A stretch of DNA of 45,074 nucleotides, taken from IMG/VR virus record IMGVR_UViG_3300045988_027758, one strand, 5' to 3'. The notes beneath the pieces were generated by a model. That model made no database searches, had not been told where the DNA came from, and was given only the letters and a program-made list of their open reading frames with translations. The translations under genes were made by a program, and so were the position numbers. Position 1 is the first letter of the stretch, and every line of letters starts with the position of its first letter. This document shows positions 1,704 to 43,519 of the stretch, in pieces. The DNA is from a virus.

Positions 1704-2325
1704 CAGAATTATCATTTCATGGTTGGTTGTGGCGGTGTTCTTTTCCCTTGTCGGGTTCATTATCGGTTCAATCACTTCAAAGCACAGTGAACCCGACAAA
1801 GCAGAAACCACCATTTACGGGCAGACCGTTGACGGACGGGTTTTTGAAGGCGAAATGTCTATGGATTGGGGTGAAGGTGATTTGAATTTCATTCCCCTTG
1901 ATGTTCCGCTGGACAAAGGCTTGCAGGAATTTATTTTCTACCTGTCCGCTGGCTACAACATGGATTTCACTTTCGTTATGGCGGTTATTCAGCAGGAAAG
2001 CCAATACAACCCCGATGCGGTGAGCAAATCCAATGATTACGGCTTGATGCAGATCAACGAGGTAAACCACCCGTACATAACAGAAACGCTTGGTATAACG
2101 AATTTTCTTGACCCTTACGAAAATGTGCGGGCTGGAATGTTCATCTTGCGTAAGCTGTTTGAAAAATATGAAACCCCTGAAAAGGTGCTTATGGCGTACA
2201 ACATGGGGGAAACAGGCGCAGGAATTCTTTGGGAACAGGGAATTTTTGAAACTAACTATTCAAAATCAGTATTGCAAATTCAGCAGGAAATGAACGCTGA
2301 ATTGGGAAGGAGTTCAAATGATTAA
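1663..2325 (+). CDS. Membrane-anchored lytic transglycosylase (SLT domain)
   Basis: N-terminal TM helix IIISWLVVAVFFSLVGFIIGSI. SLT catalytic block QQESQYNPDAVSKSNDYGLMQIN and AYNMG. Overlaps the SNF2 3' end by 41 nt. Confidence 0.85.
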   Translation: MNYSKSIKKRSIANRIIISWLVVAVFFSLVGFIIGSITSKHSEPDKAETTIYGQTVDGRVFEGEMSMDWGEGDLNFIPLDVPLDKGLQEFIFYLSAGYNMDFTFVMAVIQQESQYNPDAVSKSNDYGLMQINEVNHPYITETLGITNFLDPYENVRAGMFILRKLFEKYETPEKVLMAYNMGETGAGILWEQGIFETNYSKSVLQIQQEMNAELGRSSND

Positions 2326-2755
2326 GTGTAAACAGGCAATGGAAAATTCCGCTTGCGGAAAAGACTGCTGCTGTTTGGAGTGCGAGGAAAAGGAAACCTG
2401 TAAGGATGTTTGTTCCGATTTATCCCCGGATTGTGGGGATGCGGTGACAGAGGAAACCGCCCTTGCCACGATGAAGCAGGAAGCGGCGGCTGTTATCAAG
2501 GTTATTGCAGACCTGACCTTGCAGAAGAAGCAGATTGAGGATCAGGAAAAGGCAATGCGTGAAAAGTTGCGTGAAGCAATGGAGAAATACGGGGTGAAAT
2601 CCTTTGAAACCCCGGAAATCAAATTCACCTATGTTGCACCTACTACCCGCACAAGCATTGACAGCACGAAACTGAAAAAGGATTTGCCGGATGTAGCTGC
2701 AAAGTATTCCAAAATTTCCAAAGTTTCCGCTTCCGTCAAAATCACGGTGAAGTAA
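2318..2755 (+). CDS. Hypothetical protein: Cys-rich N-terminus plus a coiled-coil, Gp157-like C-terminal part
   Basis: ATG preceded by GGAAGGAG. 9 Cys in the first 40 aa. The remainder resembles the Siphovirus Gp157 family (from memory, not verified). Confidence 0.6.
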   Translation: MIKCKQAMENSACGKDCCCLECEEKETCKDVCSDLSPDCGDAVTEETALATMKQEAAAVIKVIADLTLQKKQIEDQEKAMREKLREAMEKYGVKSFETPEIKFTYVAPTTRTSIDSTKLKKDLPDVAAKYSKISKVSASVKITVK

Positions 2756-2759
2756 ATGG

Positions 2760-2876
2760 GTGGGTACTTTGACACAAAAGGAACTTCTGAACATGGTGAA
2801 GTGGTTTGTTCGCAGTCACGCAGAAAACACCAACCGTGCAGGAAAGTATCTTGCAAACACCATGTTTGCCATGTAA
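2760..2876 (+). CDS. Possible small ORF (38 aa)
   Basis: GTG start 9 nt after GGTGAAG. The peptide VGTLTQKELLNMVKWFVRSHAENTNRAGKYLANTMFAM looks more protein-like than the overlapping Arg/Cys/His-rich track ORF 2756..2962. Confidence 0.3.
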   Translation: MGTLTQKELLNMVKWFVRSHAENTNRAGKYLANTMFAM

Positions 2877-2936
2877 AGAGTTCCCAAAGTGGAACGGAAT
2901 ATTGGGTTAGAAATATGAAGAAAGAAGGTGGATGTT

Positions 2937-3236
2937 ATGACGAGAGTAGAAAGGGAAGCTGATCCGGGTGAATCCTTTGACGGGGGCTATCACCTTTATG
3001 CAAAGGAAAAGCATAAGGAACGAGTTGCAAAAAATTCTGAACGGATTGACTACGCAATCAAGCAATTTGAGTTGAACAACATTGAATTCACCTTGAAAAA
3101 TGAGCAAAGCGGGCATTTCCATTGTAGAAGAAAGTCAGATGATAAGCTGTTTCAGTTTTGGGCTGGAACGGGGAAAATCCTTGGATATGACCGTTTGCGG
3201 GGAATTCATTCACTTATCAAATTATTGTTGGGGTGA
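2937..3236 (+). CDS. Hypothetical protein (99 aa)
   Basis: ATG 2937 lies 8 nt after AAGAAGGTGG. In frame with track ORF 2928..3236. Confidence 0.65.
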   Translation: MTRVEREADPGESFDGGYHLYAKEKHKERVAKNSERIDYAIKQFELNNIEFTLKNEQSGHFHCRRKSDDKLFQFWAGTGKILGYDRLRGIHSLIKLLLG

Positions 3237-3240
3237 TGCA

Positions 3241-3654
3241 ATGGCAGAAGAAAAACTTTTTGAAGGGCAAATCAAGAAATACTTTCATTCTGTCGGTATC
3301 TACCCGGCGGGCTATCCAACGGACAGAATGAACGCCCCTATGGTGGGGTGGTACACCAAAATTTGGGGCGGCGGTTTTCAGAAGTCCGGCATTCCTGACA
3401 TTATCTGTTGTGTGAACGGGGTAATGCTGGCGGTGGAAGTCAAGGCTTCCAATGGTAGACCTTCCGAACTGCAAAAGTTAAATATCAGCCGTATCAACAA
3501 ATCAGGCGGCGTTGCAGTTTTCCTTTACCCGGAAGGGTTTGAACAGTTCAAAGAACTTTTGAAAGGGGTGATAAATTGCGGTATTCACATTCCAGCGTTG
3601 ATTGCTTTGAAAAGTGCAAACACAAGTACGAAATGCGTTACATACACGGGATAA
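3241..3654 (+). CDS. VRR-NUC / PD-(D/E)xK nuclease (Holliday-junction-resolvase-like)
   Basis: Core GIPDIICCVNGVMLAVEVKASNGRPSELQ (D...EVK). ATG 3241 after GGGGTGA. The upstream part of track ORF 3100..3654 overlaps the previous gene. Confidence 0.8.
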   Translation: MAEEKLFEGQIKKYFHSVGIYPAGYPTDRMNAPMVGWYTKIWGGGFQKSGIPDIICCVNGVMLAVEVKASNGRPSELQKLNISRINKSGGVAVFLYPEGFEQFKELLKGVINCGIHIPALIALKSANTSTKCVTYTG

Positions 3655-5339
3655 CCACCATTCCCCCGGCTGAACCTGATAATGCCCTGATTATGGGGCA
3701 GACGGTTCACACGGGCATTGAAAAAAGCCTTGAAGAAGCAATCAAAGAATACAGTTTCAGCTATCCGATTATTACCGATGAACATATCAACGAAATAATC
3801 AAGTTTGAAACAGTGATCCCGCTTGCAAGGGCGGCAATCCCGCTCGGTGGGGCATTTGAAGTTGAAATTGCAGACAGCGATTTCCACGGGTTCATTGATT
3901 ACCTTGTTCCCGTGGGTGATGGGTACTTTGATTTGTACGATTTTAAGTATTCAAACAATGTATCAGGCTATAAGCAGTCAAATCAGCTTCACCTTTACAA
4001 ATACTTTTGGGAACGGAACAACCCCGGAAAGAAAATCCGAAATATGTATTTCCTGTTTATCCCAAAGGTATCAATTCGGCAGAAGAAAACCGAAACTTTG
4101 CTTGACTTCCGGCAGCGTTTGAAAGAAGAACTTGCCGGGGCAGAGGTCAAAACCGTTCAAATTGGGTTCAATCCTGAAAAGGTCATTGAATTCCTGTTTG
4201 GAATAAAAGCTATCAAAGAAGAAAAGGATTTCCCGCAAAACAAAAGCTATTTGTGCCGTTTTTGCGAGTATCAAGAAAATTGTGAGAAAGGATGGAACTA
4301 TTTTATGAAGTTACCTGAAAACAAGAGAAGAAACATTGAAGCCGTTGAAAAGCGTGTGCTTTGGATTTATGGTGTTCCGTTTTGCGGAAAGACCACCTTT
4401 GCAAATAGCTTCCCTGATCCGCTGATGCTGAACACGGATGGCAATATCAAGTTCGTTGATGCCCCGTATATCCGCATTAAGGACGAAATCAAGGTTGAGG
4501 GGCGCATGACGAAAAGAACCCTTGCGTGGGATGTGTTCAAGGATACCATTTCCGAACTGGAAAAGAAGGACAACACCTTCAAGACGATTGTTGTTGACCT
4601 GTTGGAAGATTTGTATGAGCATTGCCGCCTGTATATGTATCAGCAGATGGGTATTACCCATGAATCCGATGATTCCTTCCGTGCGTGGGATAAGGTTAGG
4701 GGCGAATTTTTGAACACCCTGAAACGCCTTATGAACCTTGACTATGAAAACATTATCCTGATTTCCCATGAGGACACAAGCAAGGACATTACCAAAAAGG
4801 GCGGCGATAAGATCACGGCGATCAAGCCTAACTTGCAGGATAAGGTTGCAAACAAGGTTGCCGGAATGGTGGATGTGGTTGCCCGTATCGTGGCAGACGG
4901 TGACACCCGCACATTCAGCTTCAAGAGCAATGAAGTTATTTTCGGCGGCGGGCGTTTGAAGGTAAACGCAAAGGATATTCCGCTTGATGTGAACGCCCTG
5001 TTTGCGGTTTACGATGAAGCCAACAAGAACGCTGCTTCCGGCGTTGTGACAGCAGCCGCTTCCACAGGAAAGACCGGGCGCAGCACCCGCAAGAAAGCAG
5101 AAGAAGCACCCGCCACAACCGCAGATAAGCCGCAGGACAAGCCCGCAGAGGAACAGGCGGTAAACAATACCCCTGAGCAGGAAACCCCGCAGGAAGCCGC
5201 AGATAAGGCAGAGGAAAAGCAGCCTGAACAGGCAGCAGAGCAGCAGGACACAGCAGCCCCGGTTGATGGCGTTATGAATCCCCCGGAAGCCCCGGCAGAG
5301 GAAGAAAAGCCCCGCCGTAAGCGTAAAGCAAGAGATTAA
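3576..5339 (+). CDS. Fusion protein: Cas4/RecB-like PD-(D/E)xK exonuclease (4-Cys) + Sak4-like AAA_24 ATPase + acidic Pro/Glu/Ala-rich tail
   Basis: N-terminal half: Cys in VDCFEKC, IDYL...LYDFKYS, QLHLYKYF, CRFCEYQENC. C-terminal half: Walker A YGVPFCGKTT, VVDLLED, ILISHED. The last ~110 aa are low complexity. TTG start 6 nt after AAAGGGGTG. Confidence 0.8.
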   Translation: MRYSHSSVDCFEKCKHKYEMRYIHGITTIPPAEPDNALIMGQTVHTGIEKSLEEAIKEYSFSYPIITDEHINEIIKFETVIPLARAAIPLGGAFEVEIADSDFHGFIDYLVPVGDGYFDLYDFKYSNNVSGYKQSNQLHLYKYFWERNNPGKKIRNMYFLFIPKVSIRQKKTETLLDFRQRLKEELAGAEVKTVQIGFNPEKVIEFLFGIKAIKEEKDFPQNKSYLCRFCEYQENCEKGWNYFMKLPENKRRNIEAVEKRVLWIYGVPFCGKTTFANSFPDPLMLNTDGNIKFVDAPYIRIKDEIKVEGRMTKRTLAWDVFKDTISELEKKDNTFKTIVVDLLEDLYEHCRLYMYQQMGITHESDDSFRAWDKVRGEFLNTLKRLMNLDYENIILISHEDTSKDITKKGGDKITAIKPNLQDKVANKVAGMVDVVARIVADGDTRTFSFKSNEVIFGGGRLKVNAKDIPLDVNALFAVYDEANKNAASGVVTAAASTGKTGRSTRKKAEEAPATTADKPQDKPAEEQAVNNTPEQETPQEAADKAEEKQPEQAAEQQDTAAPVDGVMNPPEAPAEEEKPRRKRKARD

Positions 5340-20299: not shown

Positions 20300-20587
20300 A
20301 TGATTGATTTGACAACCGTTGCACAGGCGGCACTTGTCCTTTTTGGTGCGGTGATTACAACCGTAATCGTTCCGTGCGTGAAGAAGAACACCACCGTTCA
20401 GCAGCAGAAGGAAATCATGGGTTGGGTGAAAATCGCTGTTGCGGCAGCAGAACAGCTTTACAAGGGTTCTGACCGTGGCGAGGAAAAGAAAGCCTATGTT
20501 TTGGACTGGCTGAACAAGCAAGGTATCACGATTGATGCCGATAAGCTGGATGCCATGATTGAAGCAGCAGTTCACGAAATCCAGTAA
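20300..20587 (+). CDS. LL-H-type holin-like membrane protein
   Basis: N-terminal TM AALVLFGAVITTVIVPCV, then VAAAEQLYKGSDRGEEKKAYVLDWL ... MIEAAV, typical of the Holin_LLH family. Confidence 0.65.
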   Translation: MIDLTTVAQAALVLFGAVITTVIVPCVKKNTTVQQQKEIMGWVKIAVAAAEQLYKGSDRGEEKKAYVLDWLNKQGITIDADKLDAMIEAAVHEIQ

Positions 20588-34066: not shown

Positions 34067-35866
34067 ATGGCAGAATTTTCAAAGTTGGTTATCACCAACA
34101 AAGGACAGGCTTTGATTGCAAAGATGATTGCCGGAAAGGGTAACATTGACTTCACAAAGATTTGCGCTTCCAGTACCACCTACACGCTGGCGCAGCTTGA
34201 AGCCCTGACTTCCCTTTCCAATATCAAGCAGACAAGCCTTATTTCCAAAGTAACCCGCACAAACGAGGTTGCAATCAAGGTTGAAACGGCGTTCACGAAC
34301 AATGACCTGACAGCCGGGTATTATATGCGTACCCTTGGACTGTATGCGATTGATCCCGATGAGGGTGAAATCCTGTACGCCGTGACAATCGAAAATTCCG
34401 GGAACTGCTATATGCCCCCTTACAATGGTGTTACCGTTTCGGGTGCTTATGTGCAGCTTGTCACCACGGTAGGCAATGCGGACAATGTTTCCCTTGAAGT
34501 GGATGCAGCCGCCGTTGCAACTATCGGTGATATTCAGGAATTGCAGAAGGAAATTGCAGACCTTGAAGCCTATGTCGGTTATACTGCTTCCGATATTTAC
34601 GGCGTGGAAGTTGACTTCGTGAACAAGAAGTTCACCCGTCTTGCGGGTGCGGTGAACCGTTCCGCTGGTGCTGGTTTTGATAACATTGCACCTTTCGGCG
34701 GCAGAAAGCGTTGCAACCTGACAAATGACGGTAAGGTTGTAGCCTATTACGGTGAAGCCGGATTTACCACCACGGGCAAGCTGACACAGGCAATCACTAT
34801 TGCAGAGGGTGAAAACGCTGGTACTTATGCGGCGGGAACGATTGTTCAGACAATGGTTGAACAGCCGAAATTTTATTACAAGGTTGTTCCGCTGCTTGTG
34901 GAACATAACGCTTTAGGTTCTAAAATCCGCAAAGCCCGTTACTATGTTTCCGCAACACCCAAAGCAGGGTTCAAACTTCACCCGGCGTTCATTGAGAACG
35001 GCAACGAGAATGAAAAGATTTACCTTGCAGCCTTTGAAGGTTCGCTTTGGGATGCTTCCGCAAGTGCTTACATTTTGGATGGTGCACAGGTGGCAGATTT
35101 CGCAAATGATATGCTTTGCAGTATCGCAAACGCAAAACCCGCTTCCGGCTTAAATCAGAACCTTACCCGTTCTAATACCCGAAAGCTGGCACAGAAGCGT
35201 GGTTTAGGTTGGGAACAGGGCTATGCAGCTACGGCAGCAGCTTCCCAGCTTCTTATGCTGGTTGAATATGCAACCTTCAATGTTCAATCGGTGATTGGCA
35301 ACGGTGCAGTAAGCAAAACCGATGATGGTACAACTTCCATGACGGAAAACAGCGGTGCAACCGTTTCTTTGGGTAACGCTTCCGGCGCAGTCACTAATGC
35401 AAACGGTATTCAGATTGTTTCCTATCGAGGTGAAGAAAACTTTTGGGGAAACATTTGGTGGTGGGTTGACGGCATGAACGAACAGAACCCTTCCACTTTC
35501 GCAGAAGGTGATTTCGGAACGCTGTTCGTTGCGGATCATGGCTTTGCTGATGATTCTTCCGCAAGCCCTTATAAGAACACTGGAATTCACCCGTGCTACG
35601 GTGGCGGTTATGTTTCCGCTTTCGGTTGGTCGGATGAATTTGATTGGCTGTTCATTCCAGCCGAAAAGAACGGCAACAGCAGCCTTCCCGTTGGTGATTA
35701 CTATTGGAACGCTAATCCCGGCTGGCGGGTTGCTATATTGGGCGGTAAGTGGACTTACGGTGCTAGTGCGGGTGCTTTCTATTGGACTCTGGATAGTGCT
35801 GCTTCTTCTCGTGATCGGAGTATCGGCGGGCGGTTGGTGTATGTACCTTCCAAAAAGGCAGCGTAA
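34067..35866 (+). CDS. Tail fibre protein: N-terminal tail-collar fibre domain, C-terminal C-type-lectin/FGE-like domain carrying the DGR variable repeat
   Basis: N-terminus MAEFSKLVITNKGQALIAK. C-terminus GGKWTYGASAGAFYWTLDSAASSRDRSIGGRLVYV. The last ~120 nt pair with the TR downstream. Confidence 0.9.
   Translation: MAEFSKLVITNKGQALIAKMIAGKGNIDFTKICASSTTYTLAQLEALTSLSNIKQTSLISKVTRTNEVAIKVETAFTNNDLTAGYYMRTLGLYAIDPDEGEILYAVTIENSGNCYMPPYNGVTVSGAYVQLVTTVGNADNVSLEVDAAAVATIGDIQELQKEIADLEAYVGYTASDIYGVEVDFVNKKFTRLAGAVNRSAGAGFDNIAPFGGRKRCNLTNDGKVVAYYGEAGFTTTGKLTQAITIAEGENAGTYAAGTIVQTMVEQPKFYYKVVPLLVEHNALGSKIRKARYYVSATPKAGFKLHPAFIENGNENEKIYLAAFEGSLWDASASAYILDGAQVADFANDMLCSIANAKPASGLNQNLTRSNTRKLAQKRGLGWEQGYAATAAASQLLMLVEYATFNVQSVIGNGAVSKTDDGTTSMTENSGATVSLGNASGAVTNANGIQIVSYRGEENFWGNIWWWVDGMNEQNPSTFAEGDFGTLFVADHGFADDSSASPYKNTGIHPCYGGGYVSAFGWSDEFDWLFIPAEKNGNSSLPVGDYYWNANPGWRVAILGGKWTYGASAGAFYWTLDSAASSRDRSIGGRLVYVPSKKAA
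35723..35843 (+). repeat. DGR variable repeat (VR)
   Basis: 121-nt ungapped alignment to 35947-36067. It has 30 differences, every one opposite an adenine of the TR. Confidence 0.9.
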
Positions 35867-35946
35867 GCACTGAAATATATTGGGTAGTTCAGGGAGTATT
35901 GTTGTTTACAAACCCGATTAAACACAAGAGCAAAAATAGAAACCAT

Positions 35947-36067
35947 AAAAAGGTTACTAAATTAGGCAGTAAATGGAATAACAGTGCTAATGCAGGTACT
36001 TTCTATTGGAATCTGAATAATGCTACTTCTAATCGTAATCGGAATATCAGCAGGCAGTTAGTAAATG
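35947..36067 (+). repeat. DGR template repeat (TR)
   Basis: Non-coding copy of the VR, rich in AAY codons in the VR frame (KKVTKLGSKWNNSANAGTFYWNLNNATSNRNRNISRQLVN). The 5' boundary is uncertain by about 4 nt. Confidence 0.9.
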
Positions 36068-36072
36068 CACGC

Positions 36073-36105
36073 AACAGGCGGGGAAAATCCAAATCCCCGC
36101 CTGTT
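36073..36105 (+). other. 12-bp GC-rich hairpin immediately 3' of the TR
   Basis: AACAGGCGGGGA-aaatccaaa-TCCCCGCCTGTT. Confidence 0.8.
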
Positions 36106-36269
36106 CAATATATTCTCTGTATTCCTGAATTACCCCGCCGCTTGGCGAAAAAGACAGCCCCCACAAGGGGGAAGTTAAAAATAAAATTGGGCTGTATTAG
36201 TAAATTTGAAAGTTTATTTTCAAAAGTTGAAAGTTCGGCTTAATGTGCATACAAAAAGGACATTCAGCA

Positions 36270-37382
36270 ATGAAGCGTTACGGTAATCTATACGAACAAA
36301 TTTATTCTATGGATAACCTACGAAAAGCACACAAGAACGCACGGAAGGGAAAAGGCTGGTATGAAGAAGTAAAGGAAGTTGATGCAAACATTGAAGTGTA
36401 CTTGAAACAGCTTCAAGAAATGCTTATCAATCATACTTACCACACTTCCAATTATGAAAAATTCATCAAGAAGGAAAACGGAAAGGAACGAGAAATTTTC
36501 AAACTTCCATATTTCCCGGATCGTATTTGCCAATGGGCTATTCTGCAAGTGATTGAGCCGTATTTAATGCGACACATGACAAAGAACACCTATTCAGCAT
36601 TACCGAAAAGAGGAATTCACAAGGCATTGCACGATGTTCAAGAAGCAATGTGGAAGGATGTTCCGAATTGCCAACACTGTTTGAAACTTGATGTAAGGCA
36701 TTATTACCCGTCCATAAATCACGACATTTTGAAGGCAAAGTTCAGAAGATTGTTCAAAGATGCTGAATTGCTTTGGTTGTTGGATGAAATCATAGACAGC
36801 ATTTGCACCGCAAACATTGAAGATTTGCGTAATATTTGGCTACTGGATGAAGATGTTGACCCGGAAACGGGAATACCAATCGGAAATTATCTTTCCCAAT
36901 ATTGCGGAAACTTCTATCTTTCTTCATTCGATCACTGGTTGAAAGAAGAAAAGCGAGTGAAGCACACATTCCGATACATGGATGATGTTGTAATTTTCGG
37001 AAGCAGCAAGGAAGAACTTCACAAGTTGCGGAAGGAAATTGCTTTGTATTTCAAAACGGAATTACGGTTGACTATAAAAGGAAATTGGCAAATCTTTCCG
37101 TCTTATGTGCGGGGCGTTGACTTTGTGGGTTATCGAACATTTTTGAATTACACCCTTCTTCGCAAGAGCAGTTGCAAGAACTTCAAGGCGAAAATGGTTA
37201 AAATCCGAAAGAAAACCGCAAACGGACAGATGATGAACTATTCCGAATGGTGCAGCGTGAATTCCTATAAAGGTTGGTTGAAGCATTGCGATAGTTACCG
37301 TTTGCAGAAGAAATATATAGAACCTATCCAGTCGGACACCGATAGATATTATCGGGAAGTAGTAAAAAGAAAGGTGGCGTAA
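36270..37382 (+). CDS. DGR-type reverse transcriptase
   Basis: N-terminus MKRYGNLYEQI; LDVRHYYPSI; DGR-diagnostic IGNYLSQ; YMDDVVIFG. ATG 36270 after AAAGGA. Confidence 0.9.
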   Translation: MKRYGNLYEQIYSMDNLRKAHKNARKGKGWYEEVKEVDANIEVYLKQLQEMLINHTYHTSNYEKFIKKENGKEREIFKLPYFPDRICQWAILQVIEPYLMRHMTKNTYSALPKRGIHKALHDVQEAMWKDVPNCQHCLKLDVRHYYPSINHDILKAKFRRLFKDAELLWLLDEIIDSICTANIEDLRNIWLLDEDVDPETGIPIGNYLSQYCGNFYLSSFDHWLKEEKRVKHTFRYMDDVVIFGSSKEELHKLRKEIALYFKTELRLTIKGNWQIFPSYVRGVDFVGYRTFLNYTLLRKSSCKNFKAKMVKIRKKTANGQMMNYSEWCSVNSYKGWLKHCDSYRLQKKYIEPIQSDTDRYYREVVKRKVA

Positions 37383-37384
37383 AC

Positions 37385-37648
37385 ATGGTTGATTACGGAA
37401 AGGTTAGAAGCACCGTCAAACCTGATGAAATTGTGATTGATGAATTCAGCGTTTGGCAGCACACCAACATTCAGGAAGTTTCCGAAAATGTGGGTGAAGA
37501 AAATGAATTCGTGGGCTATGAGTTCAACATGGTTCAGTATGACAAGAACGAATTCATTTTGAAACAGGCAAAGGAAAATGCGGAACTGTCCGAACAGATC
37601 ACGCAGACACAGATTGCCTTGACGGAAGTTTATGAAATGATGGCGTAA
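37385..37648 (+). CDS. Hypothetical acidic protein (87 aa), XkdW position
   Basis: Intact ORF with RBS AAGGTGG; C-terminal helical segment. Confidence 0.55.
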   Translation: MVDYGKVRSTVKPDEIVIDEFSVWQHTNIQEVSENVGEENEFVGYEFNMVQYDKNEFILKQAKENAELSEQITQTQIALTEVYEMMA

Positions 37649-37667: not shown

Positions 37668-37778
37668 ATGGCGGCTATTTATGCGGCACTTATCAAGAAG
37701 GGGTTGAAAACCCTTGAAGATGTTCCTGACAAGCTGAAAGAAGCTGTTCAGAAGATTTTGGACGGTGATACAGATTGA
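37668..37778 (+). CDS. Small protein (36 aa), XkdX/CD1375-like
   Basis: MAAIYAALIKKGLKTLEDVPDKLKEAVQKILDGDTD. RBS AAAGGCGGTG. Below the ORF-track length cutoff. Confidence 0.6.
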   Translation: MAAIYAALIKKGLKTLEDVPDKLKEAVQKILDGDTD

Positions 37779-37825
37779 TTTTCAATCTTATCATAAAAAT
37801 ACTTTTCAGAAAGGAGATTGAAGAA

Positions 37826-37951
37826 ATGGCTGTTATCTATGCAACCCTGATTATCAAGGGCAAGAAAACTTTCGCTGATGTTCCTGTCAAAATTCAGGAC
37901 AAAGTGAAGGAAGTACTGATTGACCTTGATTGCCCTGAACTGGCTGAATAA
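37826..37951 (+). CDS. Small protein (41 aa), paralogue of 37668..37778
   Basis: MAVIYATLIIKGKKTFADVPVKIQDKVKEVLIDLDCPELAE. RBS AAAGGAG. Confidence 0.6.
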   Translation: MAVIYATLIIKGKKTFADVPVKIQDKVKEVLIDLDCPELAE

Positions 37952-38064: not shown

Positions 38065-38496
38065 GTGAAAGAAGGTTTTTGCGCTGGAATTGGCGTTGTG
38101 GGTGGCTTCATTGCTTCCCTTTTTGGCGGGTGGGATGCCGCCCTGATTACCCTTGTGATTTTTATGGGTATCGACTACTTCACCGGGCTTATCGTTGCCG
38201 GGGTGTTCCATAATTCCAACAAGACAGAAAACGGCAGTCTTGAAAGCCTTGCCGGGTGGAAGGGGCTTTGCAGAAAGGGCGTTACCCTTCTGATTGTACT
38301 TGTTGGTTGCCGCCTTGATTTGGTAATGGGTTCAAATTTCATTCGTGATGCGGTGGTTATCGCTTTCATTGCGAACGAAACAATCAGCATTGTTGAAAAT
38401 GCGGGGCTTATGGGTATGCCTATCCCGTCCGTTATTGTCAAGGCGATTGAAGTTTTGAAGAAAAAGGCAGAAAGTGAGGATAAAGAAAATGAGTAA
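38065..38496 (+). CDS. Holin (Holin_4_1 / TcdE-like)
   Basis: Three hydrophobic segments, FTGLIVAG and ANETISIVENAG blocks, charged C-terminus. GTG start after AAAGGAAG. Confidence 0.85.
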   Translation: MKEGFCAGIGVVGGFIASLFGGWDAALITLVIFMGIDYFTGLIVAGVFHNSNKTENGSLESLAGWKGLCRKGVTLLIVLVGCRLDLVMGSNFIRDAVVIAFIANETISIVENAGLMGMPIPSVIVKAIEVLKKKAESEDKENE

Positions 38497-39415
38497 TTCA
38501 AGTTTGATTTCGTACACGAAACTTAGCCCGAACCACAGCGGGCAGCGTACACACAGCGTTGACCGTATCACGCCCCATTGCGTTGTAGGTCAGCTTTCTT
38601 GTGAAACTATTTGTGACTGCTTCCCAGCAGGAAGGGGCGCAAGCTGCAATTATGGCATTGGCAAGGATGGGCGTATTGCCCTTTGCGTTGACGAGGACAA
38701 CCGTTCTTGGTGTTCTTCCAGCAATGCCAACGATCAGCGGGCAATCACGATTGAATGCGCTTCTGATAAAACTGAACCGTATGCAATGACGGATGCGGTA
38801 TATGCAAGCCTGATTGACCTTTGCACTGATATTTGCAAGCGTTACGGGAAAACTAAACTGCTTTGGTTTGCCGATAAGGAAAAAACCCTTGCATACAACC
38901 CGGCAGCGGATGAAATGATTATCACCGTGCATAGATGGTTTGCAAACAAGAGTTGTCCGGGCGATTGGCTGTATAACCGTTTGGGCGATCTTGCCGCAAA
39001 GGTAACGGCAAAGTTAGGCGGTACGGCTTCCAATCCTTCCGGCACTCTGTACCGTGTGCAGACCGGGGCATATACAAAGAAAGCAAACGCTGATGCACAG
39101 CTTGAAAAGGTAAAGGCGGCGGGCTTTGATACCTACATGGTTCAGGCGGGCGGCTATTACAAAATTCAGGTTGGTGCATACAGTAAGAAGGAAAATGCGG
39201 TTGCTATGGCAGCAAAGCTGAAAGCAGCCGGGTTTGATACCTTCATTACCACGGAACAGGGAACAGCGGTCACGGTGAAGAAATCCGTTCAGGAAATCGC
39301 CCGTGAAGTGGTTGCCGGGAAGTGGGGCAACGGTGAGGAACGCAAGAAAAAGCTGATTGCGGCGGGGTATGATTACAGCGCAGTTCAGGCAGCAGTAAAC
39401 GCCCTGATGGGCTAA
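38489..39415 (+). CDS. Endolysin: N-acetylmuramoyl-L-alanine amidase + 2 SPOR-like repeats + CW_7-like motif
   Basis: Amidase_2-like N-terminal domain. YRVQTGAYTKKANADAQLEKVKAAGFD / YKIQVGAYSKKENAVAMAAKLKAAGFD. GKWGNGEERKKKLIAAGYDYSAVQAAVN. Confidence 0.85.
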   Translation: MSNSSLISYTKLSPNHSGQRTHSVDRITPHCVVGQLSCETICDCFPAGRGASCNYGIGKDGRIALCVDEDNRSWCSSSNANDQRAITIECASDKTEPYAMTDAVYASLIDLCTDICKRYGKTKLLWFADKEKTLAYNPAADEMIITVHRWFANKSCPGDWLYNRLGDLAAKVTAKLGGTASNPSGTLYRVQTGAYTKKANADAQLEKVKAAGFDTYMVQAGGYYKIQVGAYSKKENAVAMAAKLKAAGFDTFITTEQGTAVTVKKSVQEIAREVVAGKWGNGEERKKKLIAAGYDYSAVQAAVNALMG

Positions 39416-42202: not shown

Positions 42203-42394
42203 ATGAATTGGGAACAGGAAAAAGCCTATTGCAAGAAACGGGCAAAGAAACTGAAAACCGAAATGGAAGCGGCAGTTGCCGCTTCCGATGAGGAAAGATT
42301 TATTAAAGCTTACCAAACAGCAATGCGGTACATGACAAAGAAAGAATTGAAGCCCTTGTATATGGCTTTCATCAGAAAGGCGGCGAAAGTATGA
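42203..42394 (+). CDS. Hypothetical early protein (63 aa)
   Basis: ATG 42203 (GTG 42191 is an alternative); helical, Lys-rich. Confidence 0.5.
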   Translation: MNWEQEKAYCKKRAKKLKTEMEAAVAASDEERFIKAYQTAMRYMTKKELKPLYMAFIRKAAKV

Positions 42395-43071
42395 GCGAAA
42401 CGAGTTTGAAACCTGTAATTGAAAAACTTGAAAATTTATTTTCAAAGTTCAATGAGAAGTTCTATAACGGTGAACTTCAAACCCCGATTATTACGGTAAG
42501 CCCCGACACAACAAAGGGTGCTTATGGTTGGTGTACTGCTTGGAAAGCGTGGAGCAACAAGCAGCCGGAACAGAAAAAGACGACTGACCTTGCGGCAATG
42601 AGCAAGGAAGATTTGGAAAATCTGAAAAAGGATGAAGGGTTCTACGAAATCAATATTTGCGCTGAACACCTTGCAAGACCTTTTGAACAGGTTGCGGAAA
42701 CGCTGCTTCACGAAATGGTTCACCTTTACAATTTACAGATTGGGGTTCAGGACACAAGCCGGGGTGGTACTTATCACAATAAGAAATACAAAGAAGCCGC
42801 CGAACAGCACGGTTTGACCGTTGGCAAAGATGCAAAATACGGCTGGACAGTAACCACCCTGAACGATGAAGCGAAAGCCTTTGTTGCAAGTTTTCAGGAT
42901 AAGAAGTTTGAGTTACACCGCAAGAATTTTCCGAAAATCCCCGGTGCAGCCAAAACAAAGCAGTCCACCCGCAAATATGTTTGCCCGATGTGCGGAACGA
43001 TTATCAGAGCAACGAAAGAAGTTCATGTTGTTTGCGGTGATTGTGAAGTCGAATTTGAGGAAGAAAGCTAA
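42391..43071 (+). CDS. SprT-like zinc metalloprotease with C-terminal zinc ribbon
   Basis: HEMVH (HExxH) in the context LLHEMVHLYN. C-terminus CPMCG...VVCGDCE. Confidence 0.75.
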   Translation: MSETSLKPVIEKLENLFSKFNEKFYNGELQTPIITVSPDTTKGAYGWCTAWKAWSNKQPEQKKTTDLAAMSKEDLENLKKDEGFYEINICAEHLARPFEQVAETLLHEMVHLYNLQIGVQDTSRGGTYHNKKYKEAAEQHGLTVGKDAKYGWTVTTLNDEAKAFVASFQDKKFELHRKNFPKIPGAAKTKQSTRKYVCPMCGTIIRATKEVHVVCGDCEVEFEEES

Positions 43072-43108: not shown

Positions 43109-43519
43109 ATGAGTTATAAATATTACAGTACGGAACGCCCGGTAATGCCGGGTTCGTTCCCGAAGCCGCAGGGAAACACGGTGCTGAACATTGAAAATTT
43201 CAACGACCGTTCCTATGTTGCAAAAATCGGGCGTGAAGCGTGGGGATTTATCGAATATGAAAAGCCGATTTCCCCGGTTCTGCTGGATGATTATGAACTG
43301 GTTGCCGCTTCTGATGAAGAAGATAAGGATAAAATTTGTAAGCTGCTTTGTAAGGTGTTGCAGCTTACCCGTGGGGCTTCCGATTTGAAAAGCCTTGATT
43401 TCAACCCCGATTCTGAAATTGTAACAGCGGTTTTTGAGGGTGGAAGCAGAACAATCAATGTTGCTTGTGATTCGGGAACGGCAATGATCCGTGACATTAT
43501 GAATCATTTGGAGTGCTAA
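43109..43519 (+). CDS. Hypothetical early protein (136 aa)
   Basis: N-terminal block YYSTERPVMPGSFPKP...IGREAWGFIEYEKPIS, reminiscent of domains seen in polyvalent proteins of mobile elements (unverified). Confidence 0.55.
   Translation: MSYKYYSTERPVMPGSFPKPQGNTVLNIENFNDRSYVAKIGREAWGFIEYEKPISPVLLDDYELVAASDEEDKDKICKLLCKVLQLTRGASDLKSLDFNPDSEIVTAVFEGGSRTINVACDSGTAMIRDIMNHLEC

Follow-up and report, generated by a model that had tools for sequence, protein, structure and literature searches.

A probable accessory-free diversity-generating retroelement at the tail-fibre gene of a temperate phage of human-gut Lachnospiraceae

Diversity-generating retroelements (DGRs) directed at tail fibres have been known since that of phage BPP-1, in which the order is mtd-VR/avd/TR/brt: a variable repeat (VR) within the target gene, avd as an accessory gene, the template repeat (TR) and a gene for the reverse transcriptase (RT) bRT. 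Such systems are abundant in gut viromes, and tail-fibre DGRs in gut phages are well documented. The RTs of DGRs share the signature [I/V/L]GxxxSQ, which is opened by Ile181 in bRT, whereas group II intron and retroviral RTs have QGxxxSP; Arg74 and Ile181 of bRT promote adenine mutagenesis (PMC7826257). In the survey of Wu et al. 2018 (PMC5758913), 75 of 372 DGRs (29%) had the accessory-free Architecture A, the DGRs of Lineage 3 were found to be avd-less, and retrohoming independent of Avd was proposed. Here, a locus of this kind is described in a viral DNA of 45,074 nt, the IMG/VR record IMGVR_UViG_3300045988_027758. This whole stretch is called the window, and all coordinates lie within it. 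A first-pass annotation made from the sequence had proposed a DGR that targets the tip of a tail fibre. This interpretation was supported, and the DGR elements that can be tested in silico are present. The kind of system is already well known and the locus offers little that is new in kind; what the annotation missed was the lack of Avd, the RT-17 RNA and the hairpin between TR and RT, and the fixed differences between the 3' ends of the two repeats.

The locus is very probably a functional DGR of the accessory-free TR-RT architecture. It lies in the genome of a temperate phage with a contractile tail, a phage of Lachnospiraceae of the human gut (relatives of Enterocloster/[Clostridium] asparagiformis). 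This reading is carried by the anatomy of the repeats, the clade of the RT, the fold of the target, the flow of information from TR to VR and the adenine-restricted variation among near-identical phages. The features concerned are as follows; IMH denotes the initiation of mutagenic homing site at the end of a VR, as defined by Wu et al. 2018 (PMC5758913), and IMH* its counterpart at the end of a TR.

34067..35866, + strand: tail-fibre/receptor-binding protein of 599 aa, in which a tail-collar fibre domain forms the N-terminal part and the VR lies in a C-type-lectin-like domain at the C-terminus
35728..35822, + strand: hypervariable part of the VR, codons 555-585, with 19 differences from the TR, all at TR adenines
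35823..35843, + strand: IMH-like 3' end of the VR, TCGGCGGGCGGTTGGTGTATG, with a GC-rich start, invariant in related VRs and with 6 fixed differences from the TR
35952..36046, + strand: mutagenic part of the TR, an A-rich non-coding stretch that contains 33 A and, read in the VR frame, 9 AAY codons
36047..36067, + strand: IMH*-like 3' end of the TR, TCAGCAGGCAGTTAGTAAATG
36073..36105, + strand: perfect 12-bp GC-rich hairpin, AACAGGCGGGGA / TCCCCGCCTGTT, with a 9-nt loop, directly 3' of the TR
36126..36254, + strand: structured RNA RT-17 of Rfam (RF03020), between TR and RT
36270..37382, + strand: DGR-type RT of 370 aa, with IGNYLSQ (motif 4) and YMDD

Repeat anatomy and variation among related phages

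The VR and the TR were aligned without gaps over 121 nt, positions 35723-35843 against 35947-36067 (offset 224). On recounting, they differed at 30 of the 121 positions, as had been noted initially, and each difference was opposite a TR adenine (21 A>G, 5 A>T, 4 A>C). Since 45 of the 121 TR positions are adenines, the hypergeometric probability that all 30 mismatches fall at A is 1.5e-17. A pattern derived from the TR by allowing any base at adenines matched only the VR and the TR in the window, thus revealing no second, remote VR there, and gave no match in 100 shuffles. The extent of the VR and its distance from the TR required correction. The gap between the repeats is 103 nt rather than 104 nt, and the VR is not the final 121 nt of the gene but corresponds to codons 555-592 of the 599-codon target gene, which runs to 35866, 23 nt past the VR (20 coding nt and the stop codon). 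In the VR frame, the TR translates as ...KWNNSANAGTFYWNLNNATSNRNRNISRQLVN and the VR as ...GGKWTYGASAGAFYWTLDSAASSRDRSIGGRLVY; these translations and the abundance of AAY codons in the TR agreed with those first given. The adenines of the mutagenic part fall 17, 12 and 4 times at codon positions 1, 2 and 3, respectively.

All 30 differences had been regarded as DGR variation, and this view held for the 19 within 35728-35822. The five mismatches at 35723-35727 (TGGCG against AAAAA) are uninformative because any sequence fits an A-run under the A-to-N rule; these positions are nearly constant in related VRs (TGGCG or TGGAG), and the length of the A-run in the TR differs between relatives. The six A>G/T differences in the last 21 nt of the VR, 35823-35843, were the same in 45 of 45 related VRs. 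Therefore, the hypervariable zone was taken to be 35728-35822, 95 nt in which the 19 differences all lie at TR adenines (P = 1.8e-11). The six differences fixed at the 3' end behave as those between an IMH and an IMH* rather than as ongoing variation, and these ends may have the corresponding function here.

A TTG-initiated open reading frame (ORF) of 114 aa (35899-36243) passes through the TR in the VR-like frame. Its weak match to PHROG 5302 arises solely because the TR resembles the VR. Automatic annotation may pick up this ORF as a gene, which it almost certainly is not.

To compare repeats among relatives, which are cited below by running labels (L and a number) where they must be told apart, a 59-nt piece of the TR was located in exact form in 11 IMG/VR contigs and as a relaxed pattern in one GTDB genome, [Clostridium] asparagiforme DSM 15981, and the 3' end of the VR was located in 33 human-gut metagenome contigs. 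The pooled set contained 45 distinct VRs, 42 distinct VR/TR pairs and 9 TR variants. When each VR was compared with its own TR over the 42 pairs, 1096 of 1111 mismatches (98.6%) were found at TR adenines and 15 elsewhere, so that across separate related contigs the polymorphism was confined to the template adenines nearly as strictly as had been anticipated. Among the 45 VRs, variation was observed in 31 of the 33 TR-adenine columns of the hypervariable zone. The TR was the same as that of the window in 27 of the 42 pairs, and non-adenine changes in variant TRs were mirrored in their own VRs. These shared changes indicate that information flows between the repeats, and the adenine asymmetry gives the direction, from TR to VR.

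Close relatives date this process. L011 differs from the window at 22 of 95 VR positions and at only 6 of ~3,800 flanking positions (~99.8% identical), and L008 and L003, with flanks 98.6-99.2% identical, have 18 and 10 VR differences, respectively. Because the VRs diverge between near-identical flanks, it may be concluded that retrohoming was very recent in this phage lineage. The compact layout is also widespread: among 80 relatives identified by their RTs (47-100% identity), 76 have the order VR, ~100-410 nt, TR, 106-374 nt, RT (202 nt from the TR end to the RT start in the window), and at least 3 of the other 4 are interrupted by contig ends.

Several points weigh against a functional, accessory-free DGR. 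The evidence for variation comes from separate metagenomic contigs and not from reads of one population, and cDNA formation and retrohoming, which were not observed directly, are deduced from sequence patterns. A search for promoter-like sites upstream of the TR and the RT gave none. No inverted repeat, hairpin or cruciform follows the VR in the window, and 35815-35950 folded no better than shuffles (z = 0.26). Finally, Avd is essential in the only DGR that has been dissected biochemically, and a search of ~30 small window ORFs with Pfam (PF05635) found no Avd homologue. Likewise, a phmmer search with BPP-1 Avd against all six-frame ORFs of the window found no Avd (E > 2), nor was one recognised in the one ORF of the related phage Perkons that was checked. 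Two of these points are tempered by the survey of Wu et al. 2018 (PMC5758913), according to which the inverted repeat after the IMH is present in only 34% of DGRs and Avd sequences are poorly conserved. A very divergent Avd might be encoded in the window; on the reading preferred here, the element would act independently of Avd and of any Avd-like protein encoded by the host.

The alternative that survives best, although it is improbable, is that of a fossil: a DGR active in ancestors and inert in this genome, the VR differences being inherited. The missing promoter would suit such a state, and loss of the DGR does occur in the group (L106, L107, L136). However, the RT ORF of the window is intact with all catalytic motifs, the RT-17 element is intact, 26 other pairs have exactly the same TR, and the 22 VR differences from L011 arose within ~0.2% background divergence.

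The relatives that lost the element illustrate how it can disappear. In L106 (2749-3000) and L107, an orphan VR with an IMH-like end is left together with the last ~50 nt of the RT gene, and the deletion, which removed the TR, RT-17 and the RT, is joined at a short ACCGAT-like repeat. In L136 (2753-2992), an RT remnant of ~80 aa remains.

The prophage of [Clostridium] asparagiforme DSM 15981 (L012/L035, NZ_CP102272.1) encodes an RT that is intact and shares 87% identity with the window RT; it also has an RT-17 element and a TR that is the same as the window TR over a 116-nt core. DSM 15981, a cultivable type strain, was the only GTDB representative genome with this TR/VR family, and a literature search found nothing linking asparagiforme with a DGR. 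This related prophage makes the Avd-independent mechanism accessible to experiment.

Reverse transcriptase, target protein and phage context

The RT most likely starts at the ATG at 36270 and not at 36243, as suggested by its ribosome-binding site (AAAGGA) and by the conservation of this start in relatives. The ORF was found to hold PIGNYLSQ and RYMDDV, that is, the two motifs named in the first-pass annotation. It matched Pfam RVT_1 (E 1e-16) and PHROG 1423 (450 bits), and the nearest annotated RT was that of Psychrobacillus phage Perkons (52% identity). Among all solved structures, the best match was 8ub7_A (114 bits, E 7.8e-32), and this chain was verified to be BPP-1 bRT (100% over 149 residues); the group II intron and retron-type RTs in PDB scored at most 56 bits. 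In BLASTP, the RT was 32% identical to bRT over nearly the full length (E 4e-39), and the residues aligned to Arg74 and Ile181 of bRT are conserved. By its motif and best-match scores, the RT belongs to the DGR clade, in line with its earlier classification as a DGR-type rather than a group II, retron or abortive-infection (Abi) enzyme.

It is highly improbable that the RT derives from such another retroelement (a group II intron, a retron, or an Abi or defence-associated (DRT) system) and that the VR and TR are an unrelated duplication. In the NCBIfam library, the top match was indeed a model of group II intron RT/maturases, and Drt3a and a retron RT came next. These matches were all below threshold (119 bits for the first, with a cut-off of 300), and BPP-1 bRT itself yielded the same sub-threshold list (99.7 bits) from this library, which has no DGR model. 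Therefore, NCBIfam does not discriminate between RT clades. The scores against RTs of solved structure and the motif, IGxxxSQ and not QGxxxSP, favour the DGR clade. RT-17 was the only RNA element found, without intron RNA domains or a retron msr/msd, and a plain duplication cannot give adenine-specific mismatches.

The target gene follows the baseplate J and Mu gp48-like genes. Its product has the Pfam Phage_tail_fib N-terminal domain (28 bits, cutoff 23) and matches PHROG 5302 'tail protein' (660 bits) and also PHROG 7037 'tail fiber'. The C-terminal 320 aa have 850 homologues, all unnamed, and no Pfam family covers this domain. Residues 280-599 were modelled by AlphaFold2 with 40 homologues as input (predicted local distance difference test score 82.4, predicted template-modelling score 0.85). 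The best Foldseek match of this model was the variable protein TaqVP (5vf4; E 3.7e-10, template-modelling score 0.52), followed by five variants of BPP-1 Mtd (1yu0-4; probability 0.96-0.99). The model thus supports the C-type-lectin fold of DGR variable proteins for the fibre C-terminus, as had been proposed for the tip. At the protein level, the scaffold of the tip (G, W, A, F, R and the terminal IGGRLVY) was constant in relatives, and ~14 positions varied freely.

Diversifying selection commonly acts on the receptor-binding tips of phage fibres, but it is scarcely credible that this VR was diversified by point mutation with positive selection or by recombination of fibre alleles beside a decaying pseudo-repeat, given the restriction of 98.6% of the differences to TR adenines, the conservation of the TR while the VR varies, the mirroring of TR non-A changes in the cognate VR and the concentration of adenines at codon positions 1 and 2 of AAY codons.

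As a DGR, the element may be pictured as working in the following way. An RNA containing the TR (35952-36067), the hairpin and the RT-17 element would be transcribed, and the RT (36270-37382) would copy the TR into cDNA with misincorporation opposite template adenines. This cDNA would then take the place of the 3'-terminal VR (35728-35822) in the tail-fibre gene, the direction being set by the IMH-like end of the VR (35823-35843) as opposed to the IMH*-like end of the TR. In this process, ~14 codons on the ligand-binding face of the C-type-lectin-fold tip would be re-randomised with the scaffold residues kept fixed, and receptor specificity could change. The receptor-binding tip would thus be re-randomisable at ~14 codons, which together contain 31 variable adenine positions, and this has a bearing on the host range of the phage in the human gut; receptor switching may also bring an ecological benefit.

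The phage has genes for a scaffold protein, head-tail adaptors, a tail terminator, a tail tube, an XkdN-like chaperone, a sheath initiator, baseplate J and a Mu gp48-like protein. The last of these is followed by the target, the RT, two small conserved genes, a holin and an amidase with CW_7 and SPOR domains, and an integrase gene lies on the strand opposite to the tail and DGR genes. Megablast against deposited phages found no match at the nucleotide level; relatives were found at the protein level only. The main lysis cassette consists of the holin (38065-38496) and the amidase (38474-39415), and a gene for another holin, of the Holin_LLH type (20300-20587), is located beside the scaffold gene, far from this cassette. 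ORFs with a DarA_C (defence against restriction) domain and an SprT-like domain are present near the lysogeny region (43109-43519 and 42391-43071, respectively).

The first of the small genes after the RT, an 87-aa ORF (37385-37648, phrog_18126), was considered as a new accessory protein. Its product is acidic and syntenic in 62 of 80 RT relatives, and it had no match among deposited phages. This candidate was rejected: in relatives without an RT (L121, L123, L125, L133 and others), the gene directly follows the fibre gene, and it therefore belongs to the tail/lysis module and not to the DGR. A 58-aa CD1375-like protein (37775-37951), also located after the RT, is syntenic in most relatives.

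RNA elements between TR and RT and the fate of template adenines

A hairpin of at least 8 bp was found after the TR in 30 of 57 distinct relatives and after the VR in 6 of 57. The post-TR hairpin is kept across lineages even though the stem sequences are unrelated. In some relatives it resembles a terminator, and by a strict rule a T-rich tail was present in 2 of the 30 hairpins. A classical terminator was rejected for the hairpin of the window, which has no T-run. This structure may serve to limit RT expression as a leaky terminator, or it may belong structurally to the template RNA.

The Rfam model of RT-17 matched 36153-36254 with 43.4 bits (gathering score 40.4), and relatives scored up to 64.8 bits. 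Alignment with relatives placed the canonical first hairpin of RT-17 at 36131-36146; cmscan had taken for it an inserted hairpin at 36153-36177, an extra GC hairpin common to the window, L017, L024 and L028. Therefore, the element spans ~36126-36254. RT-17 was detected at the same place between TR and RT in 9 of the 10 close relatives and 13 of the 20 distant ones, with covariation in 4 of 11 pairs and compensatory changes in the long-range stem. In the paper that described the motifs RT-1 to RT-19, RT-10 was placed in the spacer between TR and brt of BPP-1, and the other RT motifs were speculated to serve other DGRs. From its position in these genomes, RT-17 can be assigned to the TR-RT spacer of this large Avd-less phage DGR clade. 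By analogy, it is likely the counterpart of the BPP-1 spacer RNA (Sp / RT-10), which primes and scaffolds cDNA synthesis. RT-17, formerly an orphan 'RT-associated' RNA, thus becomes a concrete candidate for Avd-independent priming.

In the distant relative L074, another RNA motif, RAGATH-18 (RF03064, 54.8 bits), was found at 1365-1426, on the side of the VR towards the target gene and ~2 kb upstream of the RT.

The collection of natural VRs can be treated as a mutational scan, and it revealed a strong dependence on the 3' neighbour of the adenine. This was studied in 67 TR/VR pairs of the RT clade (from the window, L015-L094 and L164-L196). TR adenines before T or A, as in AAY codons, were unchanged in 35-65% of VRs and were otherwise replaced by G, T or C, whereas TR adenines before G or C were nearly always G in the VR: 299 of 305 in the context CAG, 109 of 115 in TAG, 78 of 82 in CAC and 123 of 138 in TAC. 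Of 75 cases at four-fold degenerate third positions before G, 73 had G in the VR, and the other two had A and T, respectively. Synonymous sites in the family of the window behaved in the same way, with G in 45 of 45 VRs at GCA>GCG (35768-35770) and in 43 of 45 at TTA>TTG. At second positions, the adenine of AAC gave almost only A or G, whereas that of AAT also gave T and C, the amino-acid outcomes being equal. Because the pattern also holds at synonymous sites, it is not explained by selection at the protein level. Perkons, cr52_1 and LMMB showed the change from AG to GG as well; AG contexts are absent from the TRs of BPP-1 and vir215.

In a reconstitution published in 2026 (PMC12875486), the 3' neighbour was the main determinant of the error profile of bRT, misincorporation by bRT averaged ~31%, and G rather than C was misincorporated at an elevated rate at NAC. 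The natural VRs complement these data. The pattern could result if this RT clade misincorporated C almost deterministically, if the template RNA were edited, if G.T heteroduplexes were repaired with a bias, or if selection acted at the DNA level. Since the sites belong to one family of TRs and are not fully independent, the pattern is to be taken as a lead and not as a result. One tentative proposal, which we consider rather doubtful, is that the Avd-less RT clade follows a two-class code, in which adenines before T or A are varied stochastically and those before G or C are converted to G almost deterministically, and that RT-17, with or without the post-TR hairpin, assumes the part in scaffolding and priming that is played by Avd and the Sp RNA in BPP-1. 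If the code were real, the TR could diverge from the VR at scaffold positions with no cost to the protein.

Of the 15 VR/TR changes outside adenines, 13 were T>G, usually at a T just 5' of a mutable adenine. Seven of these cases affected the TAT codon of Tyr572 (VR 35780 / TR 36004 in the window, and equivalent positions in relatives). This location suggests that the RT makes a second error as it continues from a misincorporated base.

Comparison with known systems

The locus resembles the BPP-1 DGR in several respects. In both, a target with a C-terminal VR is followed by the TR and then by the RT, the mismatches are specific to adenines, AAY codons abound in the TR and the 3' end of the VR is GC-rich and IMH-like. 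In both, the target is a tail-fibre tip with a C-type-lectin fold (as modelled here), a structured RNA lies between TR and RT, and the RTs, 32% identical, share IGxxxSQ and YMDD. The two systems differ in the region between VR and TR, which in BPP-1 holds the 387-nt avd and in the window is a 103-nt gap without avd. The inverted repeat of BPP-1 is located after the IMH of the VR, with none after the TR, whereas the hairpin of the window follows the TR; the spacer RNA is RT-10 in BPP-1 and RT-17 in the window. In addition, the TR of the window contains extra adenines in AG and AC contexts, which are nearly always G in the VRs, and the BPP-1 TR lacks AG contexts. Thus, the window DGR departs from the BPP-1 type (Architecture B of Wu et al. 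2018) with respect to Avd and to the inverted repeat after the IMH, two features of which neither is found in all DGRs.

For the target protein, TaqVP (5VF4) and Mtd (1YU0-1YU4) are the best structural matches, and they likewise carry the VR at the extreme C-terminus. Sequence identity to them is only 10-17%, and TaqVP is a bacterial protein of Thermus aquaticus and not a phage fibre.

In its overall plan, the locus corresponds to Architecture A/A1 of Wu et al. 2018, with a TR-RT core, no accessory gene and the target upstream; the association with RT-17 was not described there. The same arrangement was found in deposited viruses, namely the crAss-like phages cr52_1 and LMMB, Perkons, Bacillus phage BalMu-1 and the Methanomassiliicoccales virus vir215. 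Their RTs are 35-52% identical to that of the window, and each has the order target, 58-444 nt, TR, 131-162 nt, RT, with no annotated avd. They differ from the window phage in backbone and host (Bacteroidota podophages, an archaeal virus and phages of soil Bacillota). In vir215 (L163, NC_092586.1, Caudoviricetes sp.), positions 1895-5029 hold a phrog_5302 target and a phrog_1423 RT (37% identical) in the same compact layout. Because this virus of a gut archaeon carries the same type of cassette as the window phage, it may be concluded that the cassette type crosses the boundary between bacteria and archaea.

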